Shown here one piece after another: positions 43,419 to 62,874 of a DNA stretch of 64,000 nt. The position numbers and the translations under genes were made by a program. This DNA comes from Candidatus Helarchaeota archaeon. GTDB taxonomy: Archaea > Asgardarchaeota > Lokiarchaeia > Helarchaeales > RDOG01. Position 1 is the stretch's first letter; each line of letters starts with the position of its first letter. The DNA lies in the NCBI GenBank assembly GCA_019058315.1, contig JAHPZH010000001.1, positions 567,536 through 631,535 on the forward strand. Reading direction: 5' to 3'. The notes below the pieces were generated by a model. That model did no database searches. It was not told where the DNA came from and saw only the letters and a list, made by a program, of their open reading frames with translations.

Positions 43419-43486
43419 TTTCGCCACCATCAAAAATTATAATTTGTTTTAATAATATAAAAAAATTTAATAAAAAAATAAAAAAT

Positions 43487-46126
43487 TTAGGTTTTATAGT
43501 CTTCAATCTTTCTTAGCCATTCTTCCATATGTTCTTCATCTAAAGTAGCGAGATCTTTTAATAAAACCTCTTTTTCTTGTTCAGTTAGATGTTTTAGATT
43601 TTCTACTCTTAATAAAATATCCTTTGGGATAATTTTAAATGGTTTTGTTATAATTTTCTTAAGATCCTCAAAGGTTTCAGGTTCGAATTGCATTGATTCT
43701 CTAGTTGCAGCTGATTCTTCGGATTCTTTTAAAATAGCTCTGATTTCTTTTGCACCTAATTTGACATCTTTCTTTGCTTTTCCTTTTATGGCTTTTGCTT
43801 TTGTGATCTTTTTTGGTTCAAGTTTTAAAGCTCTTCTTCTTTGAAGAAATATAATTGTGCCAACAATAGAAGACGCTGCGACACTTCCGATGATAATAAT
43901 GATTATGATTCTAATATCTTCGCCTGGCGGGATTATGATGATTGGTTTTGGATTCTTTTTTACCTTAAATTGATAAAATGCTGAAGTATTTATTTGTCCG
44001 CTAGTATCATTGACCCAAATTGAGTAATTAATAGTTTTTTTACTGGCAGTCAAAGGAATTGTTGTATTATAGCTCCAATATCCATCCCATGTGCTTCCTG
44101 AAGTAAAATTCATTTCTAAATATTGAAATGTACCAAAAAGATTCGTATATAGAAAGACGTGAGAAACTTGTACGTTGTCTGTCACATGGACGGTAATATT
44201 TAGGGGATCAAGAGGTCGATATTTTTTCTGATTAAGAATAATTTCCAAAATATTAGGTGCTTCAGTATCTAAAGCCCCGTCCCTAGGTCCTAAGGCACTA
44301 ATTGTAGGTGGATTTTCAATAAGGATATCATATATATTATCAACGAAATCTTGTTTATCATTGATATTGGTTGAACCTATATCCATATAAAAATGCCAAA
44401 AATCGAAACTATGTGTAATTCCTGTCATTAGAGGGCTGGGACAGATTCCCATAGTAATTTGAAGAGCTGGATATCCAGCAAATGGAGGAAACCTGCATTC
44501 TCTAATCCGTAAACTATTTAACCAAATATCGGGAGCAATATCCCATAATGTTATTAAAATATTAGAATCACCAGTGTTTTCTGTAAACATCTTGCCTTGG
44601 TCTAATGTATAATAAGTCTCATGCCAACTTGCACCAGAATCATCAAAATCTTCTTGTGCCCAACTCCCCCCTTGATGAAAATATGATGCATTAAAGTCGA
44701 TATCTTGTCCTCCAGTAAGTGGATCAGAATATATTCCCGAAAAAGTATTTCCTCCTACTCCTGGATAGTGTTGATATTTATAGATAAATGAATTAGAATA
44801 GAATCTATAATAACACCAATCATTTTCATCATCACTTTGCCATGCCTCAATAAAAATAGGTCCATCACTGATTATTGGAGCGGACTCTGTTGCTCCAGTG
44901 ACGTTATTACCAGAAGAAGTCATAGCATATTGAGTTTGACCGGACAGATGTTCATTCCCATCCTTATCAAACTGTCTAAGAACATCCATATTAGTAGGAT
45001 ACATAATTGCAGAAGCCCCATCCGTGAAATTGACAGTGTAACCAGTCCTTGCTATATTTGTATAACTCGTCGATACTGTTGGAGTGCTGTTATAATATAC
45101 ACGATATTGTTTTGTCTCCGAGGCGGTTAAATTATCTATAAAAGCTACATTTACAGAAGAAATGTATAATATTCTATCTTCTGAATAAGCTGTTGCCCAA
45201 CTTGTATCTACTGCAGCAACATAAGAAGTACCTTTTGTTGCACCCGTGGCTCCAGCAATATATAGCGTATCAATATCTGCAGCTGGATTGTTCATATTAG
45301 CATCAATAAAAAGGCTTGACCAAGTATTAGCACTTTCATTCCAAAAATATCCTGAAAACTTATTTTCAGTGCAATTAAATGACATTTTGAATGTATACCA
45401 TTTATTTATTGAATATGGAATACCTGTATCTTGCAGCGAACCATTATGATAGCCAAAATTACCATCAGTTCTAAATAGAATTGAGCCTCTTGGATCAACT
45501 CCCCTTGACATGCTGAAACCTCCCCCATTGGTTTCATTAACTAACATAACAACATAAATCGTACCACTAGTCTGAGCCGTAAATGTATATCCAATGTTAT
45601 TACTTTGAACTGTATCATTATCATTGATTTCAACAACCTTTTCATACCCTTTAAATCGCGGAAGAACCCAGATATTTGTACCTACTGGTTCCCAAAGCAC
45701 CCAATTTGTTGTAGGATTTCCAAAATCAGGATCATTTTCAAAATTTTCCCAAGCTTGTAACTTTAAATTATAAACTTGGGAAATAATCTCGTCACTAGGT
45801 CCGTAAGGTGATTTATATAACCTTATTGAATCTTTAAAACAGTAATTATTTTCCTCATTGAAAATTACAGGATCTATTATTACATTCATTTGATTTGAAC
45901 CGGTGTTCTCTGTAACGGTAAATTGTTTAAAGTTTTCAAAACTTTTAGCAGATATTATGATATCTTCTACTTGGGAAGTTGCATTAAGAATTAGTGTGTT
46001 AGGAAATATATTCGATGAATTATTAGATATTGAACTTCCGATTCCAAGTATGCCTAAGAACATTAAACTTGTGAAAAACAGTAAGAAAATCCTTCTCTTG
46101 AAGTTACTTTTAGTTTTAAACCCCAT
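43487..46126 (-). CDS. Single-pass surface protein with conserved cytoplasmic helical tail (paralog 2)
   Basis: Paralog of 38000..40909 with one fewer Ig-like unit; shares KKNPKPIIIIPPGEDI and KPFK...LLKDLA.LDEE..EEWL. Confidence 0.8.
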   Translation of the reverse strand: MGFKTKSNFKRRIFLLFFTSLMFLGILGIGSSISNNSSNIFPNTLILNATSQVEDIIISAKSFENFKQFTVTENTGSNQMNVIIDPVIFNEENNYCFKDSIRLYKSPYGPSDEIISQVYNLKLQAWENFENDPDFGNPTTNWVLWEPVGTNIWVLPRFKGYEKVVEINDNDTVQSNNIGYTFTAQTSGTIYVVMLVNETNGGGFSMSRGVDPRGSILFRTDGNFGYHNGSLQDTGIPYSINKWYTFKMSFNCTENKFSGYFWNESANTWSSLFIDANMNNPAADIDTLYIAGATGATKGTSYVAAVDTSWATAYSEDRILYISSVNVAFIDNLTASETKQYRVYYNSTPTVSTSYTNIARTGYTVNFTDGASAIMYPTNMDVLRQFDKDGNEHLSGQTQYAMTSSGNNVTGATESAPIISDGPIFIEAWQSDDENDWCYYRFYSNSFIYKYQHYPGVGGNTFSGIYSDPLTGGQDIDFNASYFHQGGSWAQEDFDDSGASWHETYYTLDQGKMFTENTGDSNILITLWDIAPDIWLNSLRIRECRFPPFAGYPALQITMGICPSPLMTGITHSFDFWHFYMDIGSTNINDKQDFVDNIYDILIENPPTISALGPRDGALDTEAPNILEIILNQKKYRPLDPLNITVHVTDNVQVSHVFLYTNLFGTFQYLEMNFTSGSTWDGYWSYNTTIPLTASKKTINYSIWVNDTSGQINTSAFYQFKVKKNPKPIIIIPPGEDIRIIIIIIIGSVAASSIVGTIIFLQRRRALKLEPKKITKAKAIKGKAKKDVKLGAKEIRAILKESEESAATRESMQFEPETFEDLKKIITKPFKIIPKDILLRVENLKHLTEQEKEVLLKDLATLDEEHMEEWLRKIEDYKT

Positions 46127-46182
46127 GGTTCATTTTCACCTTTTTTTGTTTAAATCAGGTTAATATTATTAAAAAAAAATTG

Positions 46183-46212
46183 AATTTAAATCGAAATGGA
46201 ACAGTTTTATGC
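46183..46212 (-). promoter_or_regulatory. Conserved upstream element with TATA-like box
   Basis: Minus strand GCATAAAACTGTTCC-N6-ATTTAAATT; matches 40978-41007. Confidence 0.55.
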
Positions 46213-46481
46213 GATGATGAGTTTGCACTGAAATTGTGCTCTTAGGGTGAATTCATATTTTGGTGGAAAATTTTAAAAAAGGGTTATTAATGTGGGAATA
46301 AACAAATAAAAAATTTACTAAAATTTATTCATTTTTAAATTCATATATAATTTTGAAATTTATAATAAATTAATTCTGTATTTTGGGATAATTAAAGAAC
46401 GTACATTGAAAAAGAAGTTACCTTATTGAAACAAATAAGTTTAATATATCAGTATAAAAATTAACCAAATTGTGCTAAAAG

Positions 46482-46507
46482 TGGACTAGATGCCTTTTTA
46501 AATTAAA
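46482..46507 (+). promoter_or_regulatory. Repeated promoter/operator motif, copy 1
   Basis: TGGACTAGA-N4-TTTTTAAATTAAA; repeated at 47250-47275. Confidence 0.6.
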
Positions 46508-46539
46508 TAAAGGAATTTCAATTCATAAGCTCGGTAGGG

Positions 46540-47247
46540 ATTAACATCGATAAAATTAAACTTACAGCTTTAGAAAATTCAATTCTAAAACTGGCAAAGA
46601 AAATTGTTAGGAGGGGGCCCTTAAACATTCAAGAGCTATATTCATTAGCAATCAAAGAACTAAATTATTCTAAAATTGAGATTAGTAAGGGAATTTATCA
46701 ACTTACATTAAAAAAAGTCTTGGTTAAAGGGACTAAAATTACACAAGATTCCGTCCTTGAGAACTATGTTCGAAATAGAATTTTTAAATACATTTTAAAA
46801 AATCCAGGTACTCATTTGAGAGAGATTAGAGATAGATTGAGTTTGTTGCCTTTGCAGGCAGATTGGCATCTAAACATGCTAGAAAAATTTGGGTATATTA
46901 GAAAGAATAGAATTAAAAATAAAGTAGTGTATTTTGAGTCAAAAATTAATCCTGATCTTTATGATTCAATCTTTATTTTAAGAAATCTAGATAATTTGAA
47001 TATTATAAAAAAAATTTTAGCAGAACCAGATATTCCTTTAAACACTTTAGTGGGAAAAGTCCGATTAAGACCACGAAAAGTTAAAAATATCATTTTTAAT
47101 CTATTGGAAACAGATTTAATAAAGGAAATAATAGAAGATGGACAGGTAAAATATCGAGCAAATATAGAAAATATTAGTTCAGTAACAAAAATCTTTGAAG
47201 AATTAAGAATAAAAAATAATCAGAGGGGATCAAATTCAACCGTCTAA
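46540..47247 (+). CDS. Stand-alone winged-helix regulator (homolog of the N-terminus of the two fusion regulators)
   Basis: NPGTHLREI wHTH. The frame is open and homologous for 60 codons upstream of the tracked TTG at 46720; start placed tentatively at ATT 46540. Confidence 0.75.
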   Translation: MNIDKIKLTALENSILKLAKKIVRRGPLNIQELYSLAIKELNYSKIEISKGIYQLTLKKVLVKGTKITQDSVLENYVRNRIFKYILKNPGTHLREIRDRLSLLPLQADWHLNMLEKFGYIRKNRIKNKVVYFESKINPDLYDSIFILRNLDNLNIIKKILAEPDIPLNTLVGKVRLRPRKVKNIIFNLLETDLIKEIIEDGQVKYRANIENISSVTKIFEELRIKNNQRGSNSTV

Positions 47248-47249
47248 AA

Positions 47250-47275
47250 TGGACTAGACCCATTTTTAAATTAAA
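47250..47275 (+). promoter_or_regulatory. Repeated promoter/operator motif, copy 2
   Basis: TGGACTAGA-N4-TTTTTAAATTAAA, about 55 bp upstream of the 2597-aa gene. Confidence 0.6.
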
Positions 47276-47329
47276 ATTTGAAAATGATGAATTTAGATTG
47301 CCTAAAAAAACAAAAATATGTGATAAGAT

Positions 47330-50300
47330 ATGAAAAAAGATAAATTCGTAAACTTAATTTTGGCTTATTTTCTCATAATTTTCATATTTCTCCCCGTTAT
47401 TCATTCACCTTCATCAAATTTTTTGCCGCTATGGAGTAAAATAACAATTACTAACGAAATTCCGAAACATAAGCTTGAATTAGAAACTTCTGCTTTGGGC
47501 TGGCCCATGACTGAGGTGGTTTCCACGGAGAGTACGGGTAATTCTTATCATCCCTCGATCGCGGTGGACGGTACCGGGAACGTACATGTGGCGTGGGAAG
47601 ATTGGACGGACTATGGAGGTTCGGGAACGGATAATGATATATTCTATAAGTGCTGGAACGCAACCACTGGAACATGGAAGACTATAGAGGTGGTTTCCAC
47701 GGAGAGCATGGGGGATTCTTACTCTCCAACAATCGCTGCAGACGGTTTTGGGAACGTGCACGTGGCGTGGTATGATTTGTCGGATTACGGGGGCTCGGGG
47801 ACTGATTGGGATATATTCTATAAGCGCTGGAACGCCACCACAGGAACATGGTCAGGATTTATTAATACAACTGATGTAATCTCCACGGAGAGCACAGATC
47901 TTTCCCGTAAACCCTCACTGGCGGTAGACAGTTCTGGGAACGTGCACGTGGCGTGGGAAGATTGTACGGACTATGGGGGTTCGGGGACGGATAATGATAT
48001 ATTCTATAAGTGTTGGAACACCTCCACGAGTTCTTGGACTACGACCGTGCTAATCTCCACGGAGAGTACGGGTAATTCTTATAATCCCTCGATCGCAGTG
48101 GACGGTTCCGAGAACGTGCACGTGGCGTGGTACGATTTGACGGATTACGGAGGCTCGGGGACTGATAAGGATATATTCTATAAACGCTGGAACGCCACAG
48201 GAATATGGTCAGGATTTATTAATACAACTGATATAGTCTCTACGGAGAGCTCGAATGATTCTTGGCTTCTAGCAATCGCGGTGGACGGTTCCGGGAATGT
48301 ATACGTGGCGTGGTGTGATTTGACGGACTATGGGGGCTCGGGAACGGATCCTGATATATTCTATAAGTGTTGGAACACTACCACAGGAATATGGAACACG
48401 ACAGAGGTGGTTTCCACGGAGAGCACGGGTATTTCTTTTCATCCAACAATAGCAGTGGACGGTTCTGGGAACGTGCACGTTGCGTGGATGGATTATACGG
48501 ACTATGAGGGTGCAGGAACGGACCGGGATATATTCTATAAGCGCAGGAACGCCATCACAGGAATATGGTCAGGATATGTTAATGCGAGTGATGTAGTCTC
48601 CACAGAGAGTACGGGACAATTTTATAATTCCAGTCCAACAATAGCGGTTGATACTACTGGAAACGTGCATGTGGCATGGGATGATTCGACTAATTATGGA
48701 GGTTCGGGGACCGATCATGATATATTTTATAAACACCAAATAAATATTGCAAATAATTATTCGGATGATTTTAATTCCGGGACCTTAGATCCGAAATGGA
48801 TATGGCACGATGGGGGTGAAGGGGAGAGTTGGAACTTAACCGTTAATCCCGGAAATTTACGGATAATCTCGACGAGTAAGATTAATGCATGGTGGGGTAA
48901 TAATGGAGACAATATTATTTATATGCCATACATATATCAAAATTTTTCTAATATTCAATATTTTGAAATTATAACTAAGGTTAATCCTCCAGACGGAAAT
49001 GGAAAAGGGAATGGAATAGTTCTTTATGAGGATGATAATAATTATATTGTTTTAAATAACTATCGAGATAGTGTGGGAAATATTCTCTATGCACAGTATA
49101 GAAGTGTGGGAGATCCACTAACTAATATAGGTGTAATCAGAACTACCGTCAATTATTTTAAATTAATGCGAATAGGAAATTTAATTTCATATCAATATTC
49201 AAATGATGGAAGTTCTTGGAATATATTAGCAAATTATACTCATAACTACAATTTTATTCGGATGGGTATTTTTTGTTCAAGTGTAGGAGGAGGTATATTT
49301 AATTCAGATTTTGACTTTTTCAATTTCACAGAGTTAGCACCTTCTATGCCGCCACCAGATCCAAATACAAAAACCCCTCTTTGGAAATATGATACTGGTA
49401 GTTCTATTTATTCTGTTGCAATTACACCTAATGGTCAATATATTGCGGTAGGGACTGGAAACAGTTTACATTTTTGGGATATAAACTCTTCCACTCCTCT
49501 TTGGAGTTATTATGTTGGAGATGTTGTTCAAGCAGTGGATATGTCAGAAGATGGAAATTATATAGTTGCTGGAACTGGAGTTTTGGACCAGCCAGGTAAT
49601 GTTGTATTATGGCAACGTAGTAGTTCAACTCCAATATGGAATTATACAGGTTCTGGTAATTTTGGTTCTATTGCTATATCTGCTGATGGCAATTATATTG
49701 TTGCTGGAGACAGACTTTCAAATAACTTGCATTTATGGCATAGAGATAATTCTACACCTTTGTGGTCTTTCAATCCTGGTTCAGGTAATTGGGAATCGGT
49801 TGCAATTTCATCAGATGGATATTACATTGTCGCTAGTGATGGTTTCTATCATGATTATGTTTATTATTTTGATAGGACAAGTTCTACTCCTATGTGGAAC
49901 TATCAATGTGGTTCGGATGTTTGGTCAGTAGACATTTCAAAAGATGGGCAATATTACGCTGCAGGAAGCAAAGATCATAAAATATATTTCTGGCAAAATA
50001 ATAGTGATACACCAGTTTGGGATTATTCTACTAGTGGAGAAGTGTTTTCGGTTTCAATTTCAAACGACGGATCTCATATTGCAGCTGGAAGTGTCGATAA
50101 TAACCTATATTATTTTAAAACTGATAATTCTACTCCTCAATGGTCCTATACAACTGGTGATGATATCTGTTCAGAAAGAACTGTTTCCATCTCTGGAGAT
50201 GGAGAATATATTGCAGCAGGAACTAAGGATTCTAAAATTTATTTCTTCTATAGAAATGATTCTACACCCATATGGAATTTTACTACAATTACTGGATCTA

Positions 50301-53300
50301 TTGGAGCCATTGATTTATCGGATACAGGACAATATTTGGTAGCAGGCGGGCAAGATCATTATGTCTATGTATTTTCACAAGATAATGAAATGCCCCCAAC
50401 TTCAAATCATCCATTAGATATAATTACTACTGTAAGCGGAACAGAAACGATTAATTGGACACTTTACGATGATTCTGGACCAGGTCAATACCGAATTTGG
50501 GTTAATGATACTAATAATAACTATTATATATGGATTGATTGGACACCGTGGATTAATAATACTAATTTAATCGTTCCAATAAATAGAAGTACTGTCGGAG
50601 TGTTCAATTATACTATAGAATATAATAATAGCAATGGAACATTTGGAATTCCTGATATAGTTATAGTAAAAATAGAAATCTCGGTATTTAACTGGACTAT
50701 GACTGAAGTTATCTCTACGGAGAGTACGGAAGATTCTTCCCAGCCAGCAATTGCAGTTGATAATCTTGGAAATGTTCACGTGGTATGGAATGATTGGACT
50801 GACTATGGAGGTTCAGACATGGATTGTGATGTATTTTACAAGCGTTGGAATGCTATTACGAGCAACTGGACTTTGACGGAGGTAGTTTCCACTGAAAGTA
50901 CGCTTGATGTTTGGAATTTATCCATCGTGGCTGATAGTTCTGGGAATTTACACGTGGTTTGGAGCGATTGGACAGATTATGGAGGTTCAGGAACAGACAA
51001 TGATATATTTTACAAGTTCTGGAATGCTACTTCGGGAACTTGGAGCGGATATATTAATGCTACCGATGTGGTCTCTACAGAGAGCACAGGAAGCTCTAGG
51101 GATCCGGCAATCGCAGTGGATGGTTCCGGGAATGTGCACGTGGTATGGACTGAATGGTCTAATGGAGATATATTCTACAAATTCTGGAACTCTACCTCGA
51201 AAACTTGGAACGGGAATATTAATGCTACCGATGTGGTCTCCACGGAGGGCACAGGTCAATCTTGGTATCCATCTATCGATGTGGATGGATCCGGAAATGT
51301 GCACGTGGTGTGGGAGGATTCGTCGGATTACGGTGATTCGGGAACAGATGATGATATATTTTATAAATTCTGGAATGTTACCTCAAGAATTTGGAGTGGA
51401 AATATTAACACAACTGACATAGTTTCAACGGAAAGCACGGGGGGCTCTTGGTATCCATCGATCGCTGTGGATAGTTCTGGGAATGTACATGTGGTATGGA
51501 GCGATTGGACGGATTATGGAGGTGCGGGATTGAAAAATGATATTTTTTACAAATTCTGGAACGTAACCTCGGGAACTTGGGGTGGTAATTTTAATGCAAC
51601 CGATGTTGTCTCCACTGAAAGTACGGAAAGTTCTTACAGTCCATCGATATTTGTTGATAGTTTCAATAACTTACACGTGGTATGGGAGGATCATACGGAT
51701 TATGGGATGTCAGGAACAGATAATGACATATTTTACAAGTTGAGGAACGCTCCCTCGGGAATCTGGAGCGGAACTGTTAATATTACTGATATAATATCGA
51801 CAGAGAGCACGGGATCTTCTTGGAACCCATCGATAGTTGTTGACGGCTCTGGGAACATACATGTTACTTGGGATGATATGACCAATTATAATGGTTCAGG
51901 AATAGATCGTGATATATTTTATAAGAAAAAAACAATTACGGAATTACCATCTCCTCCTACTTCAAATCATCCAGCAGATATTATTACTCCATTAAGTGGA
52001 ACAGATACCATTAACTGGACACTATACGATGATTTTGGACCAGGTCAATACCGAGTTTGGGTTAATGATACAAACAATAATTACTATATATGGGTAGATT
52101 GGACAATATGGACTAATAATACTAATTTGGCCATTCCAATTAATAGAACTGCTATCGGAGTGTTCAATTATACTATAGAATATAATAACAGCATAGGATT
52201 ATTTGGGATTCCAGATACAGTTCTTGTATTTATTAATCTCCCTGCTCAGAGTAATTCTATTATTTATGGTCTAAATTCGTCTATAGGGTATAATTATCAT
52301 GCAATTCGTATAGATTTGGGTGATATAATAGTTGAAAATACTTTAAATCTTACTCCAGGTAAATTAAATGGGACTCCAGTGATTAATTCTACTATACTTG
52401 AAAACTCAAATGTTATATACGAATCATTTCTGGACAATATTAATCTGTTCGGGAATGCAAAGCTTACTATGAGAAATATATTTGAAACAGGATTAAATAT
52501 TTATTTATTCAATAACTCTGAATTGATCCTAGAGAATTGTACCCTTAATTCAATCACGGCTTGCGACACCTCAAAAGTTTGGATTAAGAATACAACTATA
52601 AACTATATATATGATTATATTAATTGGAGTTTTCCGATTATTTTTGATCCCAGCCCCGACTCAAGTACAATATATGTATTACAAAAATCAACTATAAGCC
52701 AAGTTCACTTATCTGGTGGATCAAATTTTGTAGTTGAAAATAGCACGATTGATTGGATGACAATGCAATCTTTAGCGAACATAATATCAGGAATTTCAAG
52801 AATTTCTTTGCAAGCAACGATTACTAATTCAACGTTAAATTATCTTAGGCTTTATAGGGATTCAAAAGCTACGGTATTTAGCTCACAACTTATTACAGCA
52901 TATGTGTATGATATAGCAAAATTGAGTTTAGTTGCGTCCACAATTACGAATTTATATTATGGCATAATTTGCAATTCAGGATTCACAAGTATTGTTGATG
53001 GTGTTCCAAGTGGAGGTTATATAAATAATACTCAACTAATCGGAACTTCACCATCTGGTTCGTTTGAGCTTATAAGTGTTGCAGTAACCGGTTCTGCATC
53101 TGCCTATATAGAGGGATGGCTAACAACTACTTCATTTGATCTATATTTATATGATTCTTCCTTAGCTCAGTTAAATTACACTTTTGATGCGAATTTAATA
53201 TGTTCTTATAATAATTCTCAATTAGACATTGAAAATTCGATTATAACAACTATAATGGCGTATTTGAATTCTTCAGTAACAATCCAAAAAAATTGTTCGA

Positions 53301-55123
53301 TTGGTTATATGACTATTTGGGGGACAGGGGCTATCTCAATAGATAATAGCACAATTAATGACATATATACAGCTCAATCTTTAACTTCCTCACCAGTTGG
53401 CAATATTTTAATTACGAACTCAACTATCTCATGGGCATCTATTTCTGGGGAATTTATAGCGACCTTTATAAATTGTATAATTAATTCTTTGGTAGAAGGC
53501 ATTGTTGTTTATGATGGTACTGTTATAATAGATTCAACTGGGATAAGTGGGTCAGGAAGTTATACAAATTATACTCAAATCATTTCAAGTACAGTTTTTT
53601 CAAGGTCTTTAATGTTGATCGAAGTAAATAATACTGCTAATGTAATTATTAATGAAGGTTGGTATGGTAATATATATTTAATGCATGATGCAAGTGCCAC
53701 TCTAACTAATGCAAACATAGCAGGAATAGCTTTGTTCAATAATTCCAATGCTTTCATCCATAATTCTACTATAAACGGAACTTTGTTTGGGTTAATGAGT
53801 CTTGGGAGTTCTTATTTTTCAATTGATCAAAATTCCACTTTAAGTATGATGTTTTGTACGGCATCAAGTAATGGGACAATGACTAACTCTACGGTTCTTT
53901 CAAGATTAATCTTAGCCAATTCCGCAACATTGACCATTCTAAAATCTACAATCTTGGGAGTCGCTAAAATTATGGGGTCAAATTCAATTGATTATTCTCT
54001 TAAAATGTATAATTCATCAATTGATGTACTTGAGGGAATTATCTGGGATTATTTATTATTTTATGTAACTATTAAACCTTCAATAATATTAAATAGTCCA
54101 CAAAATCAAACTGTAATAAAAAAACCAGCATATATTGATCTTAAGATTTCAGATGATGATCTAGACCCCTCGACTGTGGAATGGATAGCAAACGTAACAC
54201 AACTTACTTGGACGAATTCTTTTATTGGGTCTTATGATATTGATCTATCTAGTTTTGCCAGTGACCAGACGGTGCAATTCTGGGTTAGAGCGAATGATAC
54301 TTTAGATAATCAGAATCTAATAACTTTTATTTTGACTTTTGATGATATTCCTCCAACTAAACCATCGAATCTAACAGCAATTATTCAAAAAGGCAATATT
54401 ACTATCTCTTGGAATTCATCTTCAGATTTTAATGCTATTTATTATCATATTTGGAGACATAGTAAAAGAGTTAGTAAATATTTAGGAAATACTACATCCA
54501 ATTTTTATATAGATCTCGAGAGTTTAAAACCAGGAAAATATACTTACGAGATAATTCCATTTGATGAAGCAAATAATACAGGAGAATCTATAAACATTAC
54601 TGTAAAAATACGAGGAAGAGATATATATTATCCATTTTTAGAACCCCCTAAAGATAATATAACCTTTATTATTTTCGTGATTATAGGATCTATAGCTGTA
54701 ACCACAAGCGTAGCAATTGTATATAGGAAATACAAAGGTTCAGAAAAAAAGCCTAAAAAAATAGGTAAGGAGACAGGACCAAAACGGAAAAAAAGAAAGA
54801 AATGGAAAGGTAAAATGGCTTTCAAAGTGGATTATATTGGAATCAGTGATCTTTCTGTAGAACTAAAGCTTAGAAATCTCACTAAATCCCCAATTCCTCT
54901 AGATTCCATTGAAGATGAAAATATTAGGGAATTTTATAGTCAAGAATTCAACATTTTATCTGTAGATGAAATAAATAGAATTTTAAAAATGCAAATTCCA
55001 GATATTTCTGATAAAATAGAAATATTGGATGAATTAGCTCGTTTATCTCCAGAAGAACGAAAAGATTTGATTGAATCTCTTGAAAAACTTAATCGATCAA
55101 GACTTAATAGTGAATTTCAATAA
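47330..55123 (+). CDS. Giant (2597 aa) modular surface protein: two 7-repeat propellers, ConA-like domain, WD40/PQQ-like propeller, Ig-like units, beta-helix-like region, FN3, TM, cytoplasmic helical tail
   Basis: Signal peptide; 14 copies of VSTES...AVD..GNVHV.W.D..DYGGSGTD.DIFYK; SVAIS.DG.YI repeats; TM near C-terminus. Confidence 0.85.
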   Translation: MKKDKFVNLILAYFLIIFIFLPVIHSPSSNFLPLWSKITITNEIPKHKLELETSALGWPMTEVVSTESTGNSYHPSIAVDGTGNVHVAWEDWTDYGGSGTDNDIFYKCWNATTGTWKTIEVVSTESMGDSYSPTIAADGFGNVHVAWYDLSDYGGSGTDWDIFYKRWNATTGTWSGFINTTDVISTESTDLSRKPSLAVDSSGNVHVAWEDCTDYGGSGTDNDIFYKCWNTSTSSWTTTVLISTESTGNSYNPSIAVDGSENVHVAWYDLTDYGGSGTDKDIFYKRWNATGIWSGFINTTDIVSTESSNDSWLLAIAVDGSGNVYVAWCDLTDYGGSGTDPDIFYKCWNTTTGIWNTTEVVSTESTGISFHPTIAVDGSGNVHVAWMDYTDYEGAGTDRDIFYKRRNAITGIWSGYVNASDVVSTESTGQFYNSSPTIAVDTTGNVHVAWDDSTNYGGSGTDHDIFYKHQINIANNYSDDFNSGTLDPKWIWHDGGEGESWNLTVNPGNLRIISTSKINAWWGNNGDNIIYMPYIYQNFSNIQYFEIITKVNPPDGNGKGNGIVLYEDDNNYIVLNNYRDSVGNILYAQYRSVGDPLTNIGVIRTTVNYFKLMRIGNLISYQYSNDGSSWNILANYTHNYNFIRMGIFCSSVGGGIFNSDFDFFNFTELAPSMPPPDPNTKTPLWKYDTGSSIYSVAITPNGQYIAVGTGNSLHFWDINSSTPLWSYYVGDVVQAVDMSEDGNYIVAGTGVLDQPGNVVLWQRSSSTPIWNYTGSGNFGSIAISADGNYIVAGDRLSNNLHLWHRDNSTPLWSFNPGSGNWESVAISSDGYYIVASDGFYHDYVYYFDRTSSTPMWNYQCGSDVWSVDISKDGQYYAAGSKDHKIYFWQNNSDTPVWDYSTSGEVFSVSISNDGSHIAAGSVDNNLYYFKTDNSTPQWSYTTGDDICSERTVSISGDGEYIAAGTKDSKIYFFYRNDSTPIWNFTTITGSIGAIDLSDTGQYLVAGGQDHYVYVFSQDNEMPPTSNHPLDIITTVSGTETINWTLYDDSGPGQYRIWVNDTNNNYYIWIDWTPWINNTNLIVPINRSTVGVFNYTIEYNNSNGTFGIPDIVIVKIEISVFNWTMTEVISTESTEDSSQPAIAVDNLGNVHVVWNDWTDYGGSDMDCDVFYKRWNAITSNWTLTEVVSTESTLDVWNLSIVADSSGNLHVVWSDWTDYGGSGTDNDIFYKFWNATSGTWSGYINATDVVSTESTGSSRDPAIAVDGSGNVHVVWTEWSNGDIFYKFWNSTSKTWNGNINATDVVSTEGTGQSWYPSIDVDGSGNVHVVWEDSSDYGDSGTDDDIFYKFWNVTSRIWSGNINTTDIVSTESTGGSWYPSIAVDSSGNVHVVWSDWTDYGGAGLKNDIFYKFWNVTSGTWGGNFNATDVVSTESTESSYSPSIFVDSFNNLHVVWEDHTDYGMSGTDNDIFYKLRNAPSGIWSGTVNITDIISTESTGSSWNPSIVVDGSGNIHVTWDDMTNYNGSGIDRDIFYKKKTITELPSPPTSNHPADIITPLSGTDTINWTLYDDFGPGQYRVWVNDTNNNYYIWVDWTIWTNNTNLAIPINRTAIGVFNYTIEYNNSIGLFGIPDTVLVFINLPAQSNSIIYGLNSSIGYNYHAIRIDLGDIIVENTLNLTPGKLNGTPVINSTILENSNVIYESFLDNINLFGNAKLTMRNIFETGLNIYLFNNSELILENCTLNSITACDTSKVWIKNTTINYIYDYINWSFPIIFDPSPDSSTIYVLQKSTISQVHLSGGSNFVVENSTIDWMTMQSLANIISGISRISLQATITNSTLNYLRLYRDSKATVFSSQLITAYVYDIAKLSLVASTITNLYYGIICNSGFTSIVDGVPSGGYINNTQLIGTSPSGSFELISVAVTGSASAYIEGWLTTTSFDLYLYDSSLAQLNYTFDANLICSYNNSQLDIENSIITTIMAYLNSSVTIQKNCSIGYMTIWGTGAISIDNSTINDIYTAQSLTSSPVGNILITNSTISWASISGEFIATFINCIINSLVEGIVVYDGTVIIDSTGISGSGSYTNYTQIISSTVFSRSLMLIEVNNTANVIINEGWYGNIYLMHDASATLTNANIAGIALFNNSNAFIHNSTINGTLFGLMSLGSSYFSIDQNSTLSMMFCTASSNGTMTNSTVLSRLILANSATLTILKSTILGVAKIMGSNSIDYSLKMYNSSIDVLEGIIWDYLLFYVTIKPSIILNSPQNQTVIKKPAYIDLKISDDDLDPSTVEWIANVTQLTWTNSFIGSYDIDLSSFASDQTVQFWVRANDTLDNQNLITFILTFDDIPPTKPSNLTAIIQKGNITISWNSSSDFNAIYYHIWRHSKRVSKYLGNTTSNFYIDLESLKPGKYTYEIIPFDEANNTGESINITVKIRGRDIYYPFLEPPKDNITFIIFVIIGSIAVTTSVAIVYRKYKGSEKKPKKIGKETGPKRKKRKKWKGKMAFKVDYIGISDLSVELKLRNLTKSPIPLDSIEDENIREFYSQEFNILSVDEINRILKMQIPDISDKIEILDELARLSPEERKDLIESLEKLNRSRLNSEFQ
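47500..48735 (+). repeat. Seven intragenic coding repeats of about 175-195 bp (propeller 1)
   Basis: Recurrent TCCACGGAGAG...GGGAACGTGCACGTGGCGTGG...GATATATTCTATAAG; boundaries approximate. Confidence 0.85.
50690..51925 (+). repeat. Seven intragenic coding repeats (propeller 2)
   Basis: Same repeat family as 47500-48735; boundaries approximate. Confidence 0.85.
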
Positions 55124-55130: not shown

Positions 55131-55189
55131 TGGTGGATAGGGGAGGATTCGAACCTCCAACCGCTCGGTTAACAGCCGAGTCCTATACC
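55131..55189 (-). repeat. Duplicated 3' part of tRNA-Asn (att-like direct repeat)
   Basis: 59 bp matching 59969-60027 with 2 mismatches; lacks the tRNA 5' end. Confidence 0.92.
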
Positions 55190-55209: not shown

Positions 55210-58200
55210 ATGATTAGATGGAAATTCCAAAGGAGAAAAAACTCTATGAATAGAAATAAACTCTCATATTTTGGTAAAATTCAATTTTTTATAATTTTAA
55301 TATTTATTCTTTCTATGTTTTCATCCATATCTTATCTTTGGTCGCCTTGGAGCTATAAAATGAACCCAAGATCTCATATTGGTGATCAGGTGTTATTTAA
55401 ATCCGATTATTATGGCTATGGTAACGAAATAATAATGATTGAGGATCCTGATGCAGACGTTACTCCTGGTCCTTTTAATGATATAATCATAGTTTTTATA
55501 AATAGCAGTTCCGATCCAGCTGGATTATTCGTAACTGGCGATGAATTCGATCCTGGAGTATTTGTTGTCACGATTGGATTCACTGATGGTCCTACCGTTG
55601 GAACATTTCTCCATGTTGAAGATGGTGATTTAATTATGGTCATATATAAAGGAGAGGTGTATGCATCTGATATTTGGCATAAAACATACACAGCTATAAT
55701 CCCAAAACCCCCAATGGAAGATGAATATCATGGTTTATCTTCTTATCATGTATTAAAAATTCTGGATCCAGACATGGACATTACAAACATTACAGAAACT
55801 TTTATCCCTGATAATTTAACCGCTAAAATTGATAGCACAAGCGATCCAATTGGAATTACAGCAACATTCATTGAACTTTTCCCAACTGATGGGGAATTTT
55901 ACTTTGTATTTTCATTCACTAATGGATCTACTTATGATGATTATCTCCACGTAGAAGATGGAGATACGATTAGTTTAACATATTACGATGAACATAATTA
56001 TCAAGGAGATAGTGTTTATCTCGAAGCAAATGCCACTTGGCACAAAACTTATACCGGAACAATTAATGTAAGTGTAACTGGGTCTGTATCTGCGGGTTTA
56101 GATGCTGTTGCTGAAGTAACAATTAATGATAAAGATTTAGATATAAATCCTCTAGTTCTTGATAATTATTCTTTGCCATTTAGTCCCCTCGAGGTCCATA
56201 CTCAAGGAAATAGTTCCAATCTAATTAAAATCCCTCTAAATGAAACTGGACCATCAACTGGGATATTCAAAGGAGTTTTTAATTTAACATTAGGTCCGAC
56301 AAATCAAGATATTCCTTCCCTTCACGTATATGATGGTGCAATTATAATATATACGTATTATGATGCACGAGATATGTATGGTGATTCGGTAAATTTATCT
56401 AAACAAGAACAATTCTTTTTACATCAAAATGGTGTTTTCATAATCGATGATCTTGAATATTTTGGAGATCCAGTTACTGTAAATGTAACAATTAAAGATA
56501 AAGATTTAAACCAACTTCCGACTGTTCAAGAAACTGCAACAATTAATGCATCAAGTAGTCCTTCGGATCTAATTAGTATTACTATCTACGAAAATGGTAC
56601 AAATAGTGATAAATTCATAGGTCAATTTGACATAGGCTCCCTTGTTACATCCGATCCTGATGACTATTTACATGCAAATACAGGAGAAAATATAACAATT
56701 ATATATTTTGATGAAAAAGATATAAATGGTACATCCCAAACGAGAATTGTTAACATAACTTGGTATGAATTTCCAGAGCCCCCATCAATAAAAGTGGTAG
56801 GACTAGTAAATAATTCCATAATCTGGTCTGGGACTCTACTTAATTTCAATGTCTCTGATAATTGGTTAATAGATTCTATTTGGTATAGAGTTAATTTTGG
56901 TCCTAATATTACAATTGATACTTCTATTGGTGTTCATAATTTTTCATTCGTAATAAATGCTACAATAGAAGATCCCTACTGGATTTATGGTTTAAATTAT
57001 ATTGACATTTTTGCTAATGACTCTTTAGGTTTCGAAACTATGAGTAGATTTATACTTACTCTTGATGACACTCTTATTAGAATTAGACCACTTAATCAAA
57101 CAAATATTGTGCCAGATGCAGACGGTAATATCCTTATTGAATGGAACTCTTCGCCAGCTTGGAATCCTATTAGCTTTGATATTTACCGCAGTACCACCCT
57201 TGGATTTACCCCCAATGCAACAAACCAAATAGCACAGGGAATAAGTGATATATACTATTTAGATAATGGAACTGTTGATGGTCTTCATTATTATACAATT
57301 ATCGGTTTTAATGGGACTAATAACTCAACTTATTGGGAATATAGTTCGATATTGATTATCGATATAACTCCACCTAGTTGGGTTTTACCTCCAACTTTTA
57401 CCAGTACTCCAGTTGGTACAGAAAACGCTCGACTTGCCTGGACTAACTCGTTTGACTCTTATGATATAGCTGGATTTTCAATCTATCGAGCTAATGTTGA
57501 TAATTTTACCCAAAGTGTGCGGATTGCCAACCTGACCGAATTAACTTATCTGGACACTAGTTTAAATGCGACAATTTATTATTATTGGATAACAGCATAT
57601 GATGAGAAAGGACAAGAAAGCGGACCATCATTTTCTAGAAGTGTTATCCTACCTGGATTTGACGACGGGGATATCAGTTGTAATAAAGGAGAATACTTTG
57701 GTGATGGGGTCATCGTCTATGTGAATATTACTGATTTGGATTTAAATCAAAACGATTTAACCATTCAGAACGTCACAGTAACTGCAAATACCTCAACATA
57801 TTCAATTAATTTTACCTGTCTAGAATTAGGTCCTAATAGTGATACTTTTGTAGGTAATTTTTCGTTAGTAACTACTGGTACTAATGATTCAACAGATGAG
57901 TTGAACATTACACCTGGAAGTACTATCACAATTTTTTATTTAGATGAAAAGAATAGCGCTGGGTATCCAATATATAGATCTGTTACGATATTTTGGATCG
58001 ACGATCCCCAACCCCCAATTATAGAATTGGACGCCCCTGCAAATAGTTCTATTGTTTGGAGTTGGGATACACTTTATTTCACTGTAAGAGATAATGTACG
58101 GGTAGATTCTGTTTGGTATAGAGTTAATGATGGTATTAATGTAACAGTTGCTACTGATATACAATTCGATGAATATTCATTTGGAATCCTTGTTAATTTA

Positions 58201-59937
58201 TCAGCTCCCGATTGGATTTATGGTTTTAATTATATTGATATTTTTGCTAATGACACTATGGGTATGGAAAATACTAGTAGATTTTCATTTATTATTGATG
58301 ATACCCTTATTAGAATTAGACCGCTTAATTTAACAAATATTGAGCCAGATGCAGACGGTAATATCCTCATTGAATGGAACTCTTCGCCAGCTTGGAATCC
58401 TATTAGCTTTGATATTTACCGCAGTACAATCCCTGGATTCATTCCCAATGCAACAAACCGAATAGCACAAGCGATACCTTGGTCAACTAATTATTATATA
58501 GATAATGGAACTGACGATGGTCTTCACTATTATACAATTATTGGATTTAATGGGACTCATAATTCAACTTGCTGGGAATATGGTTCAATATTAGTTAACG
58601 ATATTACTCCACCGATTCCACCCCAAGATATTAATGCTACTCCAGTTGGTACAAGTGGTGTTCGTCTCATCTGGACTGCCCCGCCAGCCTATTATGATGT
58701 GGTTGGATATTCAATCTACCGAGCTACTATAGATGATTTTGCCCAAAGTGTGTGGATTGCCAACGTGACCGAATTGACACATTTAGACACAGGTTTAAGT
58801 AGTGGACTTTATTTTTATTGGATAACAGCATATGACGAGAAAGGACAAGAAAGCGGACCATCATCACCGGAATTTGTTATATTACCTGGACCAGAAGATG
58901 GTCATATTGAAACTGATAGAGCAGGGTACTTTGGGGAAAATGTTACCGTTTATGTAACCATTACAGATCTAGACTTAAACCAAGATGATTTATCAGTTCA
59001 GGATGTTACTATAAACGTTTCAACTGGTTTTGAATTAATTTATGTAAATCTTTTTGAGTCCGGTTGTAATAATAATACTTTTTTTGGGAATTTTACCTTA
59101 GTTACTTACATTACAAACGATACTCTTGATTACATAAATGTTACTGACGGAGCTATTATTACCATTTCATATCTTGATGAAACGAACAGCCTTGATATTC
59201 CTGAATTATTTCATATTAATATTACTTGGAACTTGATCTCCCAAGCCCCAATAATAAATCTGATAAGCCCGGAGAATGAAACCACAGTTCAAAAACCTAA
59301 CTTAATTGATTTGAATATTTATGATCCAAACTTGGATCTTTCCACTGTGGAATGGAGGGCAAACACAACACAGCTTACTTGGACAAATTCGTTTATTGGG
59401 TCCTATGATATTGATCTATCGAGTTTTGCTAGTGACCAAACTGTGCAATTTTGGGTTAGAGCGAATGATACTGCAGATAATCAGAATTTAATAACTTTTG
59501 TTTTAACTTTTGATGATATTCCTCCAACCAAACCATCGAATATGACAGCAGTAATTCAAAAAGGTAATATTACAATCTCATGGAATACATCTTCAGATGT
59601 TCATATAGTTTATTATCATATTTGGCGACATAGTAAAAAAGAAAGTAAATATTTAGGAAATATCACATCCACTTTTTATACAGATCTCGAGAGTTTAAAA
59701 CCGGGAAAATATACTTATGAAATAATTCCATTTGATGAAGCAAATAATACAGGAGAATCTATAACCATTACTGTAAAAATCAGAGGAAAAGAAACTTATT
59801 ATCCATTCTTGGAACCACTTGATAATCAAGTGACTATTATAATAATAGCAATTTTAGGATCGATAGCTATGGTGATAGGTATTGCTGTATTATTAATGAG
59901 AAAAAAATTTATTTCAGCAAAAAACCATAGTAAATAA
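55210..59937 (+). CDS. Large (about 1575 aa) surface protein with Ig/FN3-like repeats, C-terminal TM, no cytoplasmic domain
   Basis: Signal segment, repeated D.DLN...ETGP..F.G units, duplicated FN3 block, TM followed by a short basic tail. Confidence 0.85.
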   Translation: MIRWKFQRRKNSMNRNKLSYFGKIQFFIILIFILSMFSSISYLWSPWSYKMNPRSHIGDQVLFKSDYYGYGNEIIMIEDPDADVTPGPFNDIIIVFINSSSDPAGLFVTGDEFDPGVFVVTIGFTDGPTVGTFLHVEDGDLIMVIYKGEVYASDIWHKTYTAIIPKPPMEDEYHGLSSYHVLKILDPDMDITNITETFIPDNLTAKIDSTSDPIGITATFIELFPTDGEFYFVFSFTNGSTYDDYLHVEDGDTISLTYYDEHNYQGDSVYLEANATWHKTYTGTINVSVTGSVSAGLDAVAEVTINDKDLDINPLVLDNYSLPFSPLEVHTQGNSSNLIKIPLNETGPSTGIFKGVFNLTLGPTNQDIPSLHVYDGAIIIYTYYDARDMYGDSVNLSKQEQFFLHQNGVFIIDDLEYFGDPVTVNVTIKDKDLNQLPTVQETATINASSSPSDLISITIYENGTNSDKFIGQFDIGSLVTSDPDDYLHANTGENITIIYFDEKDINGTSQTRIVNITWYEFPEPPSIKVVGLVNNSIIWSGTLLNFNVSDNWLIDSIWYRVNFGPNITIDTSIGVHNFSFVINATIEDPYWIYGLNYIDIFANDSLGFETMSRFILTLDDTLIRIRPLNQTNIVPDADGNILIEWNSSPAWNPISFDIYRSTTLGFTPNATNQIAQGISDIYYLDNGTVDGLHYYTIIGFNGTNNSTYWEYSSILIIDITPPSWVLPPTFTSTPVGTENARLAWTNSFDSYDIAGFSIYRANVDNFTQSVRIANLTELTYLDTSLNATIYYYWITAYDEKGQESGPSFSRSVILPGFDDGDISCNKGEYFGDGVIVYVNITDLDLNQNDLTIQNVTVTANTSTYSINFTCLELGPNSDTFVGNFSLVTTGTNDSTDELNITPGSTITIFYLDEKNSAGYPIYRSVTIFWIDDPQPPIIELDAPANSSIVWSWDTLYFTVRDNVRVDSVWYRVNDGINVTVATDIQFDEYSFGILVNLSAPDWIYGFNYIDIFANDTMGMENTSRFSFIIDDTLIRIRPLNLTNIEPDADGNILIEWNSSPAWNPISFDIYRSTIPGFIPNATNRIAQAIPWSTNYYIDNGTDDGLHYYTIIGFNGTHNSTCWEYGSILVNDITPPIPPQDINATPVGTSGVRLIWTAPPAYYDVVGYSIYRATIDDFAQSVWIANVTELTHLDTGLSSGLYFYWITAYDEKGQESGPSSPEFVILPGPEDGHIETDRAGYFGENVTVYVTITDLDLNQDDLSVQDVTINVSTGFELIYVNLFESGCNNNTFFGNFTLVTYITNDTLDYINVTDGAIITISYLDETNSLDIPELFHINITWNLISQAPIINLISPENETTVQKPNLIDLNIYDPNLDLSTVEWRANTTQLTWTNSFIGSYDIDLSSFASDQTVQFWVRANDTADNQNLITFVLTFDDIPPTKPSNMTAVIQKGNITISWNTSSDVHIVYYHIWRHSKKESKYLGNITSTFYTDLESLKPGKYTYEIIPFDEANNTGESITITVKIRGKETYYPFLEPLDNQVTIIIIAILGSIAMVIGIAVLLMRKKFISAKNHSK

Positions 59938-59968: not shown

Positions 59969-60045
59969 TGGCGGATAGGGGAGGATTCGAACCTCCAACC
60001 GCTCGGTTAACAGCCGAGTGCTATACCTGATTAAGCCACCTACCC
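59969..60045 (-). tRNA. tRNA-Asn(GTT)
   Basis: GGGTAGG/CCTATCC-G-CCA; anticodon arm CTCGG-CTGTTAA-CCGAG; T arm GGTTCGAATCC. Confidence 0.95.
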
Positions 60046-61882: not shown

Positions 61883-61929
61883 GGGGGCAATAATTAGACA
61901 GTCATTAATAACTATTGAACCACAATCCC
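61883..61929 (-). pseudogene. Orphan degenerate 5' half of tRNA-Asp plus intron stub
   Basis: GGGATTGTGGTTCAATAGTTATTAATGACTGTCT-AATTATTGCCCCC versus intact GGGATTGTGGTCTAATGGCTATGATTTATGACTGTCT-AACTACGGCCCC. Confidence 0.7.
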
Positions 61930-61963: not shown

Positions 61964-62028
61964 GGCTTCAGTACGAGAGGAACAATTTCACATTGTTTGT
62001 TTCTGACAAGAGGAACTTCATCATAGCC
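61964..62028 (-). ncRNA. Box C/D guide sRNA antisense to the 23S rRNA sarcin-ricin loop
   Basis: GGCT-ATGATGA(C)-AGTTCCTCTTGT-CAGA(D')-...-ATGTGA(C'-like)-...TTGTTCCTCTCGTA-CTGA(D)-AGCC; 65 nt with a 4-bp terminal stem. Confidence 0.85.
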
Positions 62029-62158
62029 TTGGGAATTATAGTTTGGATAACGACTTATATCCAAGCCCCTGCTATTTCGTTCTCTCATTTTCATTACCAA
62101 TTGCTACACCTCTTACTTTAATTGATTGTATACAATAGATTGTTTTCATCTGATAAAC

Positions 62159-62195
62159 TAATGATAGTGGCAGTAGGATTTGAACCTACAATCTT
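62159..62195 (-). repeat. Duplicated 3' end of tRNA-iMet (att-like direct repeat)
   Basis: 37 bp matching 63002-63038 with 1 mismatch. Confidence 0.9.
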
Positions 62196-62214
62196 ACAGG
62201 CTATTTGCAAAGAA

Positions 62215-62874
62215 TTAGATATTCTCTATTATGTATTTGGTCATTCCTTTTAAGATATATAACTCCTTTGTACTATCAATTCTCAATTTGCATACCCCAT
62301 TATAACTTCTACCGATTCCTCTAGAGCCATGCTTTTTTATGTAAGGTTTTGTAAACTGATTCTTTGGAATATTAAGTATTATTGACCAATAAGAAATCAT
62401 TTTTTCAATTTCATGATAAGAATGTAGATGAAGATGAATCTTAATAGAATTTTTATCGATTTTAAGAACATCTAAAAGAAATCTAAGAAAAATTTCAATT
62501 AATTTTGGGTCGGAATTACTAAATTCTATTCTATGATCACTAGATGTAGTCCCTTCGCTCTGATATAATGTTGTTCCTATTATCATTAGGTCTGACCAAT
62601 TTTCTTTTGCAATTTTCTGCCCTTCCTTATAATATAGTTTTCTTCGTTGTTTTGCTAGTTCCTTCATTTTGTGATGCCCTTTTTCTAGAATAGATTGAGA
62701 TTTCTTCTTCAGTCTATCTTTTTGTTCATTTGTTAAAATTATATCTCTTGTCCAGTTCGCAACTGTTCCCTTCGGTATTCCCATTTGTGAAGATATTTCT
62801 CCAAAAGAATACCCCTTTTTACGCAACCTCCTAGCTTTTCTCTTAATTTTTTCTTTATAACTTCTATACTTCAA
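62215..62874 (-). CDS. HTH + LAGLIDADG-like endonuclease-domain protein
   Basis: ARRLRKKGYSFGEISSQMGIPKGTVANW (HTH); IGTTLYQSEG...IEFSNSDPKLIEIFLRFL; TTTATATA box at about 62938-62946. Confidence 0.75.
   Translation of the reverse strand: MKYRSYKEKIKRKARRLRKKGYSFGEISSQMGIPKGTVANWTRDIILTNEQKDRLKKKSQSILEKGHHKMKELAKQRRKLYYKEGQKIAKENWSDLMIIGTTLYQSEGTTSSDHRIEFSNSDPKLIEIFLRFLLDVLKIDKNSIKIHLHLHSYHEIEKMISYWSIILNIPKNQFTKPYIKKHGSRGIGRSYNGVCKLRIDSTKELYILKGMTKYIIENI

Follow-up and report, generated by a model that had tools for sequence, protein, structure and literature searches.

A box C/D guide RNA with two guides complementary to the host sarcin-ricin loop in an Asgard archaeon

In large-subunit ribosomal RNA (rRNA), the sarcin-ricin loop (SRL) ranks with the RNA elements that are most strongly conserved and most heavily attacked in biology. 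Does any organism direct a guide RNA to its exposed loop, and if so, what would such a guide be for? The question is raised by a gene of 65 nucleotides (nt) on the minus strand of a 64,000-nt stretch of DNA (the window; positions 567536-631535 of contig C3) from an Asgard archaeon of the Lokiarchaeia/Promethearchaeia class, whose genome (G000) comprises 5.79 Mb in 12 contigs at ~30% guanine plus cytosine (GC). An earlier reading of the window, made from its letters alone (the sequence-only reading), had proposed a box C/D small RNA (sRNA) aimed at the ricin and sarcin sites of the SRL and had assigned it, together with spare transfer RNAs (tRNAs), to an anti-ribotoxin system. As described below, the element is a true gene for an archaeal box C/D guide RNA, and it probably acts as a functional guide for rRNA modification and/or folding at the SRL, a new target for such guides; the contextual supports for the anti-ribotoxin system fail.

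Anatomy of the sRNA and its match to the host rRNA

Read 5' to 3' from 62028 to 61964, the sRNA has the order GGCT-ATGATGA-AGTTCCTCTTGT-CAGA-AACAAACAAT-GTGAAAT-TGTTCCTCTCGTA-CTGA-AGCC; stem and boxes are all found as the sequence-only reading had drawn them and, from the sequence and the tRNA calls, lie on the same strand as the tRNA genes. Its parts are as follows, with N1 denoting the guide nucleotide next to the D or D' box.

61964-62028, minus strand: whole box C/D sRNA, 65 nt, recognized from its sequence and by a strict C/D scan of the genome
62025-62028, minus strand: 5' half of the terminal stem, GGCT, pairing with AGCC at 61964-61967
62018-62024, minus strand: C box ATGATGA, a perfect RUGAUGA, the same in all five variants and in the metatranscriptome relative
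62006-62017, minus strand: D' guide AGTTCCTCTTGT, 12 nt, with N1-N11 pairing to ACGAGAGGAAC and a G-U pair at N3
62002-62005, minus strand: D' box CAGA, from the sequence; CAGA is also the D' box of the homolog in genome G208 and of the metagenome homologs
61992-62001, minus strand: internal loop AACAAACAAT between D' and C', varying among homologs in sequence and in length (5-10 nt)
61985-61991, minus strand: C' box GTGAAAT, degenerate with the RUGA core kept, its register set by the homologs (ATGAACG, ATGAAGA, ATGATGA) and the metatranscriptome relative
61972-61984, minus strand: D guide TGTTCCTCTCGTA, 13 nt, a mismatch-free complement of UACGAGAGGAACA
61968-61971, minus strand: D box CTGA, invariant across variants
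61964-61967, minus strand: 3' half of the terminal stem, AGCC, pairing with GGCT

The terminal stem has four base pairs (bp) and closes boxes C and D in the kink-turn (K-turn) manner; the spacers measure 12 nt between C and D' and 13 nt between C' and D (11-13 nt in homologs). In the internal boxes, a putative K-loop, the GA of D' and the RUGA of C' are present and the remainder is degenerate, C' agreeing with the consensus at four of seven positions. The predicted fold consists of the terminal stem only, with no stable internal structure (z = 0.44); this is expected, since the guides must remain single-stranded. No curated Rfam family matches the sRNA at its gathering threshold; the best match, to the Pyrococcus C/D family sR44, is full-length but weak (13.1 bits versus a gathering threshold of 45).

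The genome has a single 23S gene, which lies outside the window, as the sequence-only reading had noted, on the minus strand of contig C5 at ~105.5-109 kb (RF02540); its SRL reads GAGUCUCAGUACGAGAGGAACAGACUGAC (also given as UCAGUACGAGAGGAACAG), and the SRL sequences of Sulfolobus and Methanococcus likewise read UACGAGAGGAAC. Pairing to UACGAGAGGAACA gives the D guide 13 contiguous bp with zero mismatches, and pairing to ACGAGAGGAAC gives the D' guide 11 bp including one G-U, so that the exact complement and the single wobble claimed earlier are both confirmed on the organism's own SRL. The two guides of the one sRNA address the same 12-nt rRNA stretch with a 1-nt offset: N5 of the D guide is T61976, opposite A2660 (Escherichia coli numbering, here and below), and N5 of the D' guide is C62010, opposite G2661. 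The register that the N+5 rule had given from the letters alone, D to A2660 and D' to G2661, is thereby reproduced on the host 23S, where the equivalents of A2660 and G2661 are positions 105784 and 105783 of contig C5, read on the complement strand. These are the two toxin nucleotides that had been named, A2660 being the ricin site and G2661 the residue 3' of which alpha-sarcin cuts, consistent with a preprint on SRL toxins (10.64898/2026.09.18.752725).

The complementarity extends beyond the D guide: the D box CUGA is itself complementary to the rRNA UCAG preceding the target, giving 17 contiguous complementary bases in total. As N1 is free to differ from one homolog to the next (A, G, T, T), we read this run as a coincidence of rRNA sequence and not as the trace of a captured antisense rDNA fragment.

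The proteins of the C/D ribonucleoprotein (RNP) are encoded by the host: fibrillarin (PF01269, 310 bits) and Nop5 (PF01798, 218 bits) by adjacent genes at 1273.5-1275.1 kb of contig C3, and L7Ae (PF01248, 107 bits) at position 287009 of contig C5. The C/D repertoire of the host is small and its genome mesophile-like. A strict C/D scan of the entire 5.8-Mb genome has this locus as its sole hit and gives nothing in the reversed genome; a relaxed scan returns 10 candidates, versus one in the null, and among the ~10 no other comes near the SRL-directed sRNA in rRNA complementarity. A target-driven scan (D box, rRNA-complementary 10-mer and upstream C box), for which the extracted 23S range included AT-rich flanks, had no power, with 72 hits versus 58 in the reversed-rRNA null.

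A further C/D candidate lies on the minus strand of contig C5 at 56871 (ATGAAGA-TTTTTGCTT-CTGA-TTATTAAG-ATGAAGA-TAAGGCATTTGT-CTGA, with a stem GGAC/GTCC) and has an 11-bp match to 23S; a second convincing one, on the same contig and strand at 532422, has a 10-bp terminal stem and no clear rRNA target. The 16S gene is split over two contig ends (C12, 1-~950, minus strand; C5, 1-~400, plus strand), with ~200 nt apparently missing; it is not beside the 23S gene, so that this assembly shows no linkage between the two rRNA genes.

A copy in an RNA library, homologs and known guide RNAs

A copy of the locus occurs in an RNA library: in a mangrove-sediment metatranscriptome, one 247-nt contig covers 61886-62119 of the window at ~97% identity, the neighbouring DNA being uncovered; uncovered parts of the tRNA array are given no weight here. 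Its k-mer depth is ~10 in a library of 423 Mb, and strand and mature ends are not readable from the contig; RNA is a more likely source for it than DNA carry-over. Within the sRNA, this relative differs at four positions. Two of them, G61991>A and T61985>A, change C' from GTGAAAT to ATGAAAA, which is nearer the consensus and fixes the C' register; the other two fall into the D' guide, where T62008>C turns the G-U pair into G-C and C62013>T turns a G-C pair into G-U, both keeping the SRL pairing. None of the four changes touches the C, D' or D box or the D guide. This close relative has the dual SRL design too, and the design appears constrained, which is suggestive only, the D' guide showing just two substitutions.

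Beyond this relative, homologs were sought in 400 genomes of the phylum with the pattern C box, 20-50 nt, TTCCTCTCGT, 0-4 nt, CTGA. It finds four carriers, and none in reversed controls: the host genome and three others (G194, G198 and G208), which represent three genera of another family in the same class. A full-architecture pattern adds two more variants from marine sediments among metagenomes of the Joint Genome Institute (JGI). Conservation was read from five sequences anchored on their boxes, as MAFFT alignments slipped on the ATGATGA repeat. The C and D boxes are identical across variants, and the D guide is invariant from N2 to N11 (TTCCTCTCGT) in all homologs, so that every variant places A2660 at N+5 of D. 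The D' box is CTGA in G194 and G198 and CAGA in G208 and the metagenome homologs; C' is RTGA followed by three variable bases; the terminal stems differ yet pair (GGCT/AGCC, GCCT/GGGC, CCT/AGG, GTCTT/AAGGC). Loop, D' guide and stem sequences all vary, as do N1 and N12. In archaeal C/D RNPs, as seen in published RNP structures, the guide-target duplex spans roughly 10 bp; at the level of sequence, an N2-N11 block in fixed register to box D is the pattern expected for a methylation guide.

The SRL-directed D' guide is confined to the sRNA of the window among the genomes of the family: the other D' spacers are A/T-rich and have no SRL match, and a search for the D'-type SRL pattern in the same 400 genomes yields no second case. 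The D' guide would have arisen within the sRNA as a near-copy of the D guide that lost one base at its 3' end, the register shifting by one, to G2661.

By the exact pattern, the guide occurs in 4 of the 161 genomes of the class. In G001, G002, G003, G006 and G054, a search allowing two mismatches gives counts equal to the reversed control and no C/D architecture, and BLAST of the 65-nt sRNA against 60 relatives, an approach unsuited to so short a guide RNA, retrieves only their 23S genes, in antisense. Many genomes of the class are incomplete metagenome-assembled genomes (MAGs) and sRNA genes are small, which makes absence soft evidence. Patchy distribution and fast guide turnover are typical of archaeal C/D sRNAs (PMC7994747), so that rarity argues for neither a core nor a defence role. 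A loose pattern run over all species genomes gives at least 120 matches, nearly all of them chance matches in bacteria, and is uninformative on archaea beyond Asgard.

Several weaker matches were set aside or stand apart. The viral contigs L178/L179 carry ATGATGA, 30 nt and TTGTTCCTCTCGTTCTGA; they were rejected as chance, as they have no C' or D' boxes and no stem, the match lying inside an open reading frame (ORF) of 301 amino acids (aa) on the opposite strand, at 45% GC. L191/L192 were rejected for lack of the architecture. In G197 (L042/L226), G023 (L044) and G103 (L224), SRL-complementary 9-10-mers precede CTGA without a clear C box or stem. In G208 (L040/L089), another ATGATGA begins 7 nt past the 3' stem of the sRNA and may belong to a tandem C/D gene.

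The sRNA shares with the archaeal C/D sRNAs of Sulfolobus, Pyrococcus and Methanopyrus (sR RNAs; PMC4644070) a length of ~65 nt, the order C/D'/C'/D, spacers of 12-13 nt, the terminal K-turn stem, double guides, the N+5 rule, the L7Ae-Nop5-fibrillarin host and intergenic or tRNA-adjacent placement; it differs from them in its target, the GAGA tetraloop of the SRL in helix 95 (H95). A 7-mer antisense to the SRL loop is in no guide of 489 C/D sRNAs from seven archaea (PMC4644070), and the SRL loop is not among the described 23S hotspots, H35, H61, H68-71 and H90-93. The closest parallel for the doubled guide is Methanopyrus sR24/sR25, where a duplicated guide with a 3' indel by the box shifts methylation to the neighbouring nucleotide (PMC4644070); there the duplicates occupy two sRNA genes, whereas here the D guide seems to have been copied into the D' position of one sRNA. 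By this analogy, the D' guide could have arisen by the 3'-indel mechanism published for duplicated guides.

Sac-sR118 of Sulfolobus acidocaldarius (ATTCCTCGTA before CTGA) was considered as a precedent for an SRL guide and rejected, offering only six contiguous bp; the SRL block of the PMC4644070 alignment has no Sulfolobus ('S') label. Its D guide (CTTGATTCCTCGTA before CTGA; PMC4644070, Additional file 1) resembles the SRL guide minus 2 nt and is either a decayed guide or a coincidence.

Helix 95 itself is approached by two eukaryotic C/D RNAs. Tetrahymena TtnuCD32, which is U14-like, has a long H95 complementarity running into box D, with 15 of 16 nt complementary including the box, at the base of the SRL stem, and its predicted site is unmethylated (PMC6315972); human SNORD91 is reported to guide a 2'-O-methyl within helix 95, 28S Gm4618 (PMC12288042). 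The Tetrahymena RNA differs in having a role in processing, in being eukaryotic and in its unrelated sequence. Human G4618, for its part, lies presumably in the stem 3' of the GAGA loop and not at the toxin nucleotides. A report of a 2'-O-methyl at A2660 or G2661 was found for no organism in the literature searched, which is not proof of absence; the rRNA modification maps consulted show no guide-directed methyl at SRL loop nucleotides, and the literature searched contains no C/D sRNA catalogue for Asgard archaea. To judge from these sources, A2660/G2661 of the SRL would be a target not reported before for C/D guides.

The tRNA cluster and the flanks of the locus

The sRNA lies within a co-oriented, intron-rich tRNA cluster that extends from 59969 of the window to position 631783 of contig C3 (627.5-631.8 kb) and holds ~20-25 tRNA genes, many with long introns of 32-138 nt (ARAGORN). 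Its immediate surroundings are the following.

62165-62264, minus strand: upstream neighbour, a tRNA-like gene (RF00005, 24.4 bits versus a gathering threshold of 29), its 3' end 136 nt before the sRNA
62054-62062, minus strand: possible TATA-like element GGATATAAG, ~26-34 nt upstream of the 5' end of the sRNA, proposed from its letters; the RNA contig reaches beyond it, to 62119
61886-61929, minus strand: downstream neighbour, a tRNA-like 5' segment starting 34 nt after the sRNA and covered by the same RNA contig

The sequence-only reading had taken these tRNAs to be spare copies co-transcribed with the sRNA. Co-transcription with the neighbouring tRNAs is suggested by the one metatranscriptome contig; the spare nature of the tRNAs is not supported. 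The cluster holds ~19 of the 37-42 tRNAs of the genome that are detectable by ARAGORN or the Rfam model, about half of them, and BLAST finds no other copy in the genome for those of Phe, Tyr, Trp, Ala, Pro and Val. It is flanked by core chromosomal genes: downstream follow mevalonate-pathway genes (a flavoprotein, an AA_kinase-family protein, a UbiD-like protein and aconitase X, AcnX), before it lie large surface proteins and winged helix-turn-helix (wHTH) regulators, and the flanking genes show no viral or mobile-element hallmarks. It is likely to be the principal tRNA cluster of the chromosome, as opposed to a backup, tRNA detection being incomplete in so intron-rich a genome.

The placement resembles the tRNA-C/D dicistrons of Ignicoccus (tRNA-Ser), Thermoproteus (tRNA-Pro) and Nanoarchaeum (tRNA-Val) and the plant tRNA-snoRNA (small nucleolar RNA) genes, in which the guide RNA lies immediately downstream of a tRNA on the same strand. 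Such pairs are probably matured from a shared transcript, and C/D genes placed beside tRNA genes are known from archaea (PMC7994747). The present sRNA differs from these dicistrons in being embedded in a cluster of ~25 tRNAs, with a degenerate tRNA-like gene ending 136 nt ahead of it and another tRNA-like segment beginning 34 nt behind.

The homologs, in the three other MAGs as in metagenomes, do not share this setting. Their neighbours are unrelated (trpD-type and DUF1801 genes; TauE and GH4 genes; ArsR and RING genes), and the fetched flanks contain no tRNA. No toxin, immunity or defence genes occur at the locus of the window or at the homolog loci, and no convincing copies were found on viral contigs; a linkage of the homologs to tRNA arrays or viruses, which the sequence-only reading had proposed as a check, is not seen, and the four loci sit in unrelated contexts. 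That reading had held against itself the possibility of a ubiquitous housekeeping sRNA unlinked to arrays: the sRNA is indeed unlinked to arrays in its homologs, but at 4 of 161 genomes it is not ubiquitous.

Three features of the window were recorded alongside. Positions 19-73 of tRNA-Asn recur at 55135-55189 as a 55-nt partial copy (98% identity), and 4.8 kb separate this copy from the intact gene at 59969-60045; the two copies bracket a single ORF of 1575 aa (55210-59937) with weak fn3 and Ig_J hits, and this att-like direct repeat suggests an old insertion at the tRNA, with no integrase seen. Inside the tRNA cluster, an ORF of 219 aa on the minus strand (62215-62874) has no Pfam hit and a weak N-terminal HTH similarity to transposases of insertion sequence (IS) families (E ~1e-3), and its 3' end overlaps the sub-threshold tRNA-like gene at 62165-62264. 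The region 35791-55123 encodes surface-type proteins of 969, 879 and 2597 aa, with WD40/beta-propeller and ConA-like domains, each adjoining an HVO_0163-type wHTH gene.

What the guide pair may do

In the reading we favor, the sRNA would assemble with L7Ae, Nop5 and fibrillarin, and the RNP would pair with the still-unfolded H95/SRL region of nascent 23S rRNA. The D guide would place the 2'-OH of the A2660 equivalent into the fibrillarin site for methylation; the D' unit might methylate the G2661 equivalent, which is less certain because C' is degenerate. Since both guides need the same rRNA stretch, they would have to act in turn, or would give the RNP two chances at the loop. The selected role would most likely be one that is usual for this class of RNA, help with modification and/or folding at an exposed, functionally critical and protein-poor rRNA site; an altered sensitivity to SRL-directed toxins would then be a consequence and not a demonstrated purpose.

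Several points weigh against this reading. With up to two mismatches allowed, neither the closest relatives (MAGs 82-94% complete) nor the single-contig genome of the class has the guide, which is therefore not a conserved necessity; nor is there an SRL-loop guide among the 489 sRNAs of seven archaea (PMC4644070). The SRL is a very stable motif, central to GTPase activation, and methylation there might harm. The D' half may work poorly, given its C' box. The RNA evidence consists of one contig from a relative in one study, for which DNA carry-over is not strictly excludable.

The degeneracy of the internal boxes could mean that the D half works alone: C' and D' would have decayed, the D' guide would be a neutral leftover of the internal duplication, and A2660 alone would be modified. 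Such decay, which is possible and which we regard as the least doubtful of the alternatives, would leave the favored reading intact. It is in keeping with a C' box at four of seven consensus positions and a D' box of CAGA, and with the A/T-rich D' guides of the homologs, by which a working D' is not needed in the family; set against it are the intact RUGA core of C' and GA of D', the use of CAGA as D' in other family members, and the changes in the 97% relative, which bring C' closer to the consensus and keep the D' guide paired.

If pairing itself were the function, the RNP would act as a chaperone, keeping the SRL of the pre-rRNA unfolded or timing its folding without productive methylation, as has been proposed for some eukaryotic C/D snoRNAs and discussed for archaeal dual guides (PMC4644070, PMC7994747). 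The unusually long complementarity (13 bp, or 17 with the D box) and the allocation of two guides to one site, which favors occupancy over chemistry, agree with this, as does the precedent of TtnuCD32 with its unmethylated predicted site (PMC6315972). Yet the conserved block is exactly N2-N11, in a fixed register to box D, as would be predicted were the distance to the methylation site of importance; with N1 free, pairing need not reach into the D box; and the usual form of the idea bridges two distant rRNA sites, whereas here both guides bind one. We consider a pairing-only role a real alternative, but an unlikely one.

The purpose assigned by the sequence-only reading, armour against ribotoxins, holds that the sRNA is maintained for the protection that 2'-O-methyls on A2660 and G2661 would give the ribosome against SRL toxins: the G2661 methyl would remove the nucleophile of sarcin-type cyclizing RNases, and the A2660 methyl may hinder depurination. 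In its favor, the nucleotides to which the two guides point are precisely the two classical toxin sites, the A2660 register is kept in all independent variants, both guides of one sRNA are spent on the SRL in a genome with few C/D sRNAs, and occurrence in 4 of 161 genomes looks more like an accessory than a core trait. SRL-cleaving polymorphic toxins are, moreover, widespread in prokaryotes, with homologs in archaeal genomes (10.64898/2026.09.18.752725), and a block of 2'-OH-dependent cleavage 3' of G2661 by 2'-O-methylation follows from RNase T1-family chemistry. The genomic evidence does not follow suit: there is no link to toxin, immunity or defence genes at the locus or its homologs, the proposed spare-tRNA partner finds no support, A2660 is the sole target in three of the four carrier lineages, and neither ribosome-inactivating proteins (RIPs; PF00161) nor T1/sarcin-type RNases (PF00545) are present in the four carrier genomes, two of which are MAGs only ~70% complete. 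PIN-type (VapC) SRL nucleases are not known to use the 2'-OH as nucleophile. The prokaryotic SRL toxin described in the preprint cuts A2662/G2663 via the 2'-OH of A2662, which neither guide covers (10.64898/2026.09.18.752725), and archaeal C/D guides are normally patchy in their distribution (PMC7994747). Protection as the reason for which the sRNA is kept appears quite unlikely; that a small Asgard group maintains guided 2'-O-methyls at both A2660 and G2661 to make its ribosomes refractory to SRL nucleases and glycosidases is, in our view, more doubtful still. If true, this would be the first case of an immunity to ribotoxins that is guided by RNA and acts at the target site, whether the toxins come from neighbours or from the cell's own toxin-antitoxin modules.

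That the element is a chance motif or a functionless rRNA-antisense DNA fragment, as complementarity continuing through the D box for 17 nt could suggest of an rDNA-derived piece, is very improbable in the face of its complete C/D architecture with no hits in reversed-sequence controls, its independent variants in other genomes with different N1, and the near-identical copy conserved in an RNA library.

The favored reading, a guide for rRNA modification and/or folding at the SRL, makes a prediction that is sharp and easily testable. Even without methylation, the sRNA would cleanly illustrate the duplication of a guide inside one gene, with its register shifted by one base. With its target it makes up one of the earliest concrete guide-target pairs of the C/D type to be described in Asgard archaea, and a natural guide aimed at A2660/G2661 offers a route to ask whether the translational GTPase centre tolerates ribose methyls there, with a bearing also on elongation factor (EF)-dependent GTPase activation and on the sensitivity of ribosomes to sarcin-type RNases and RIPs.

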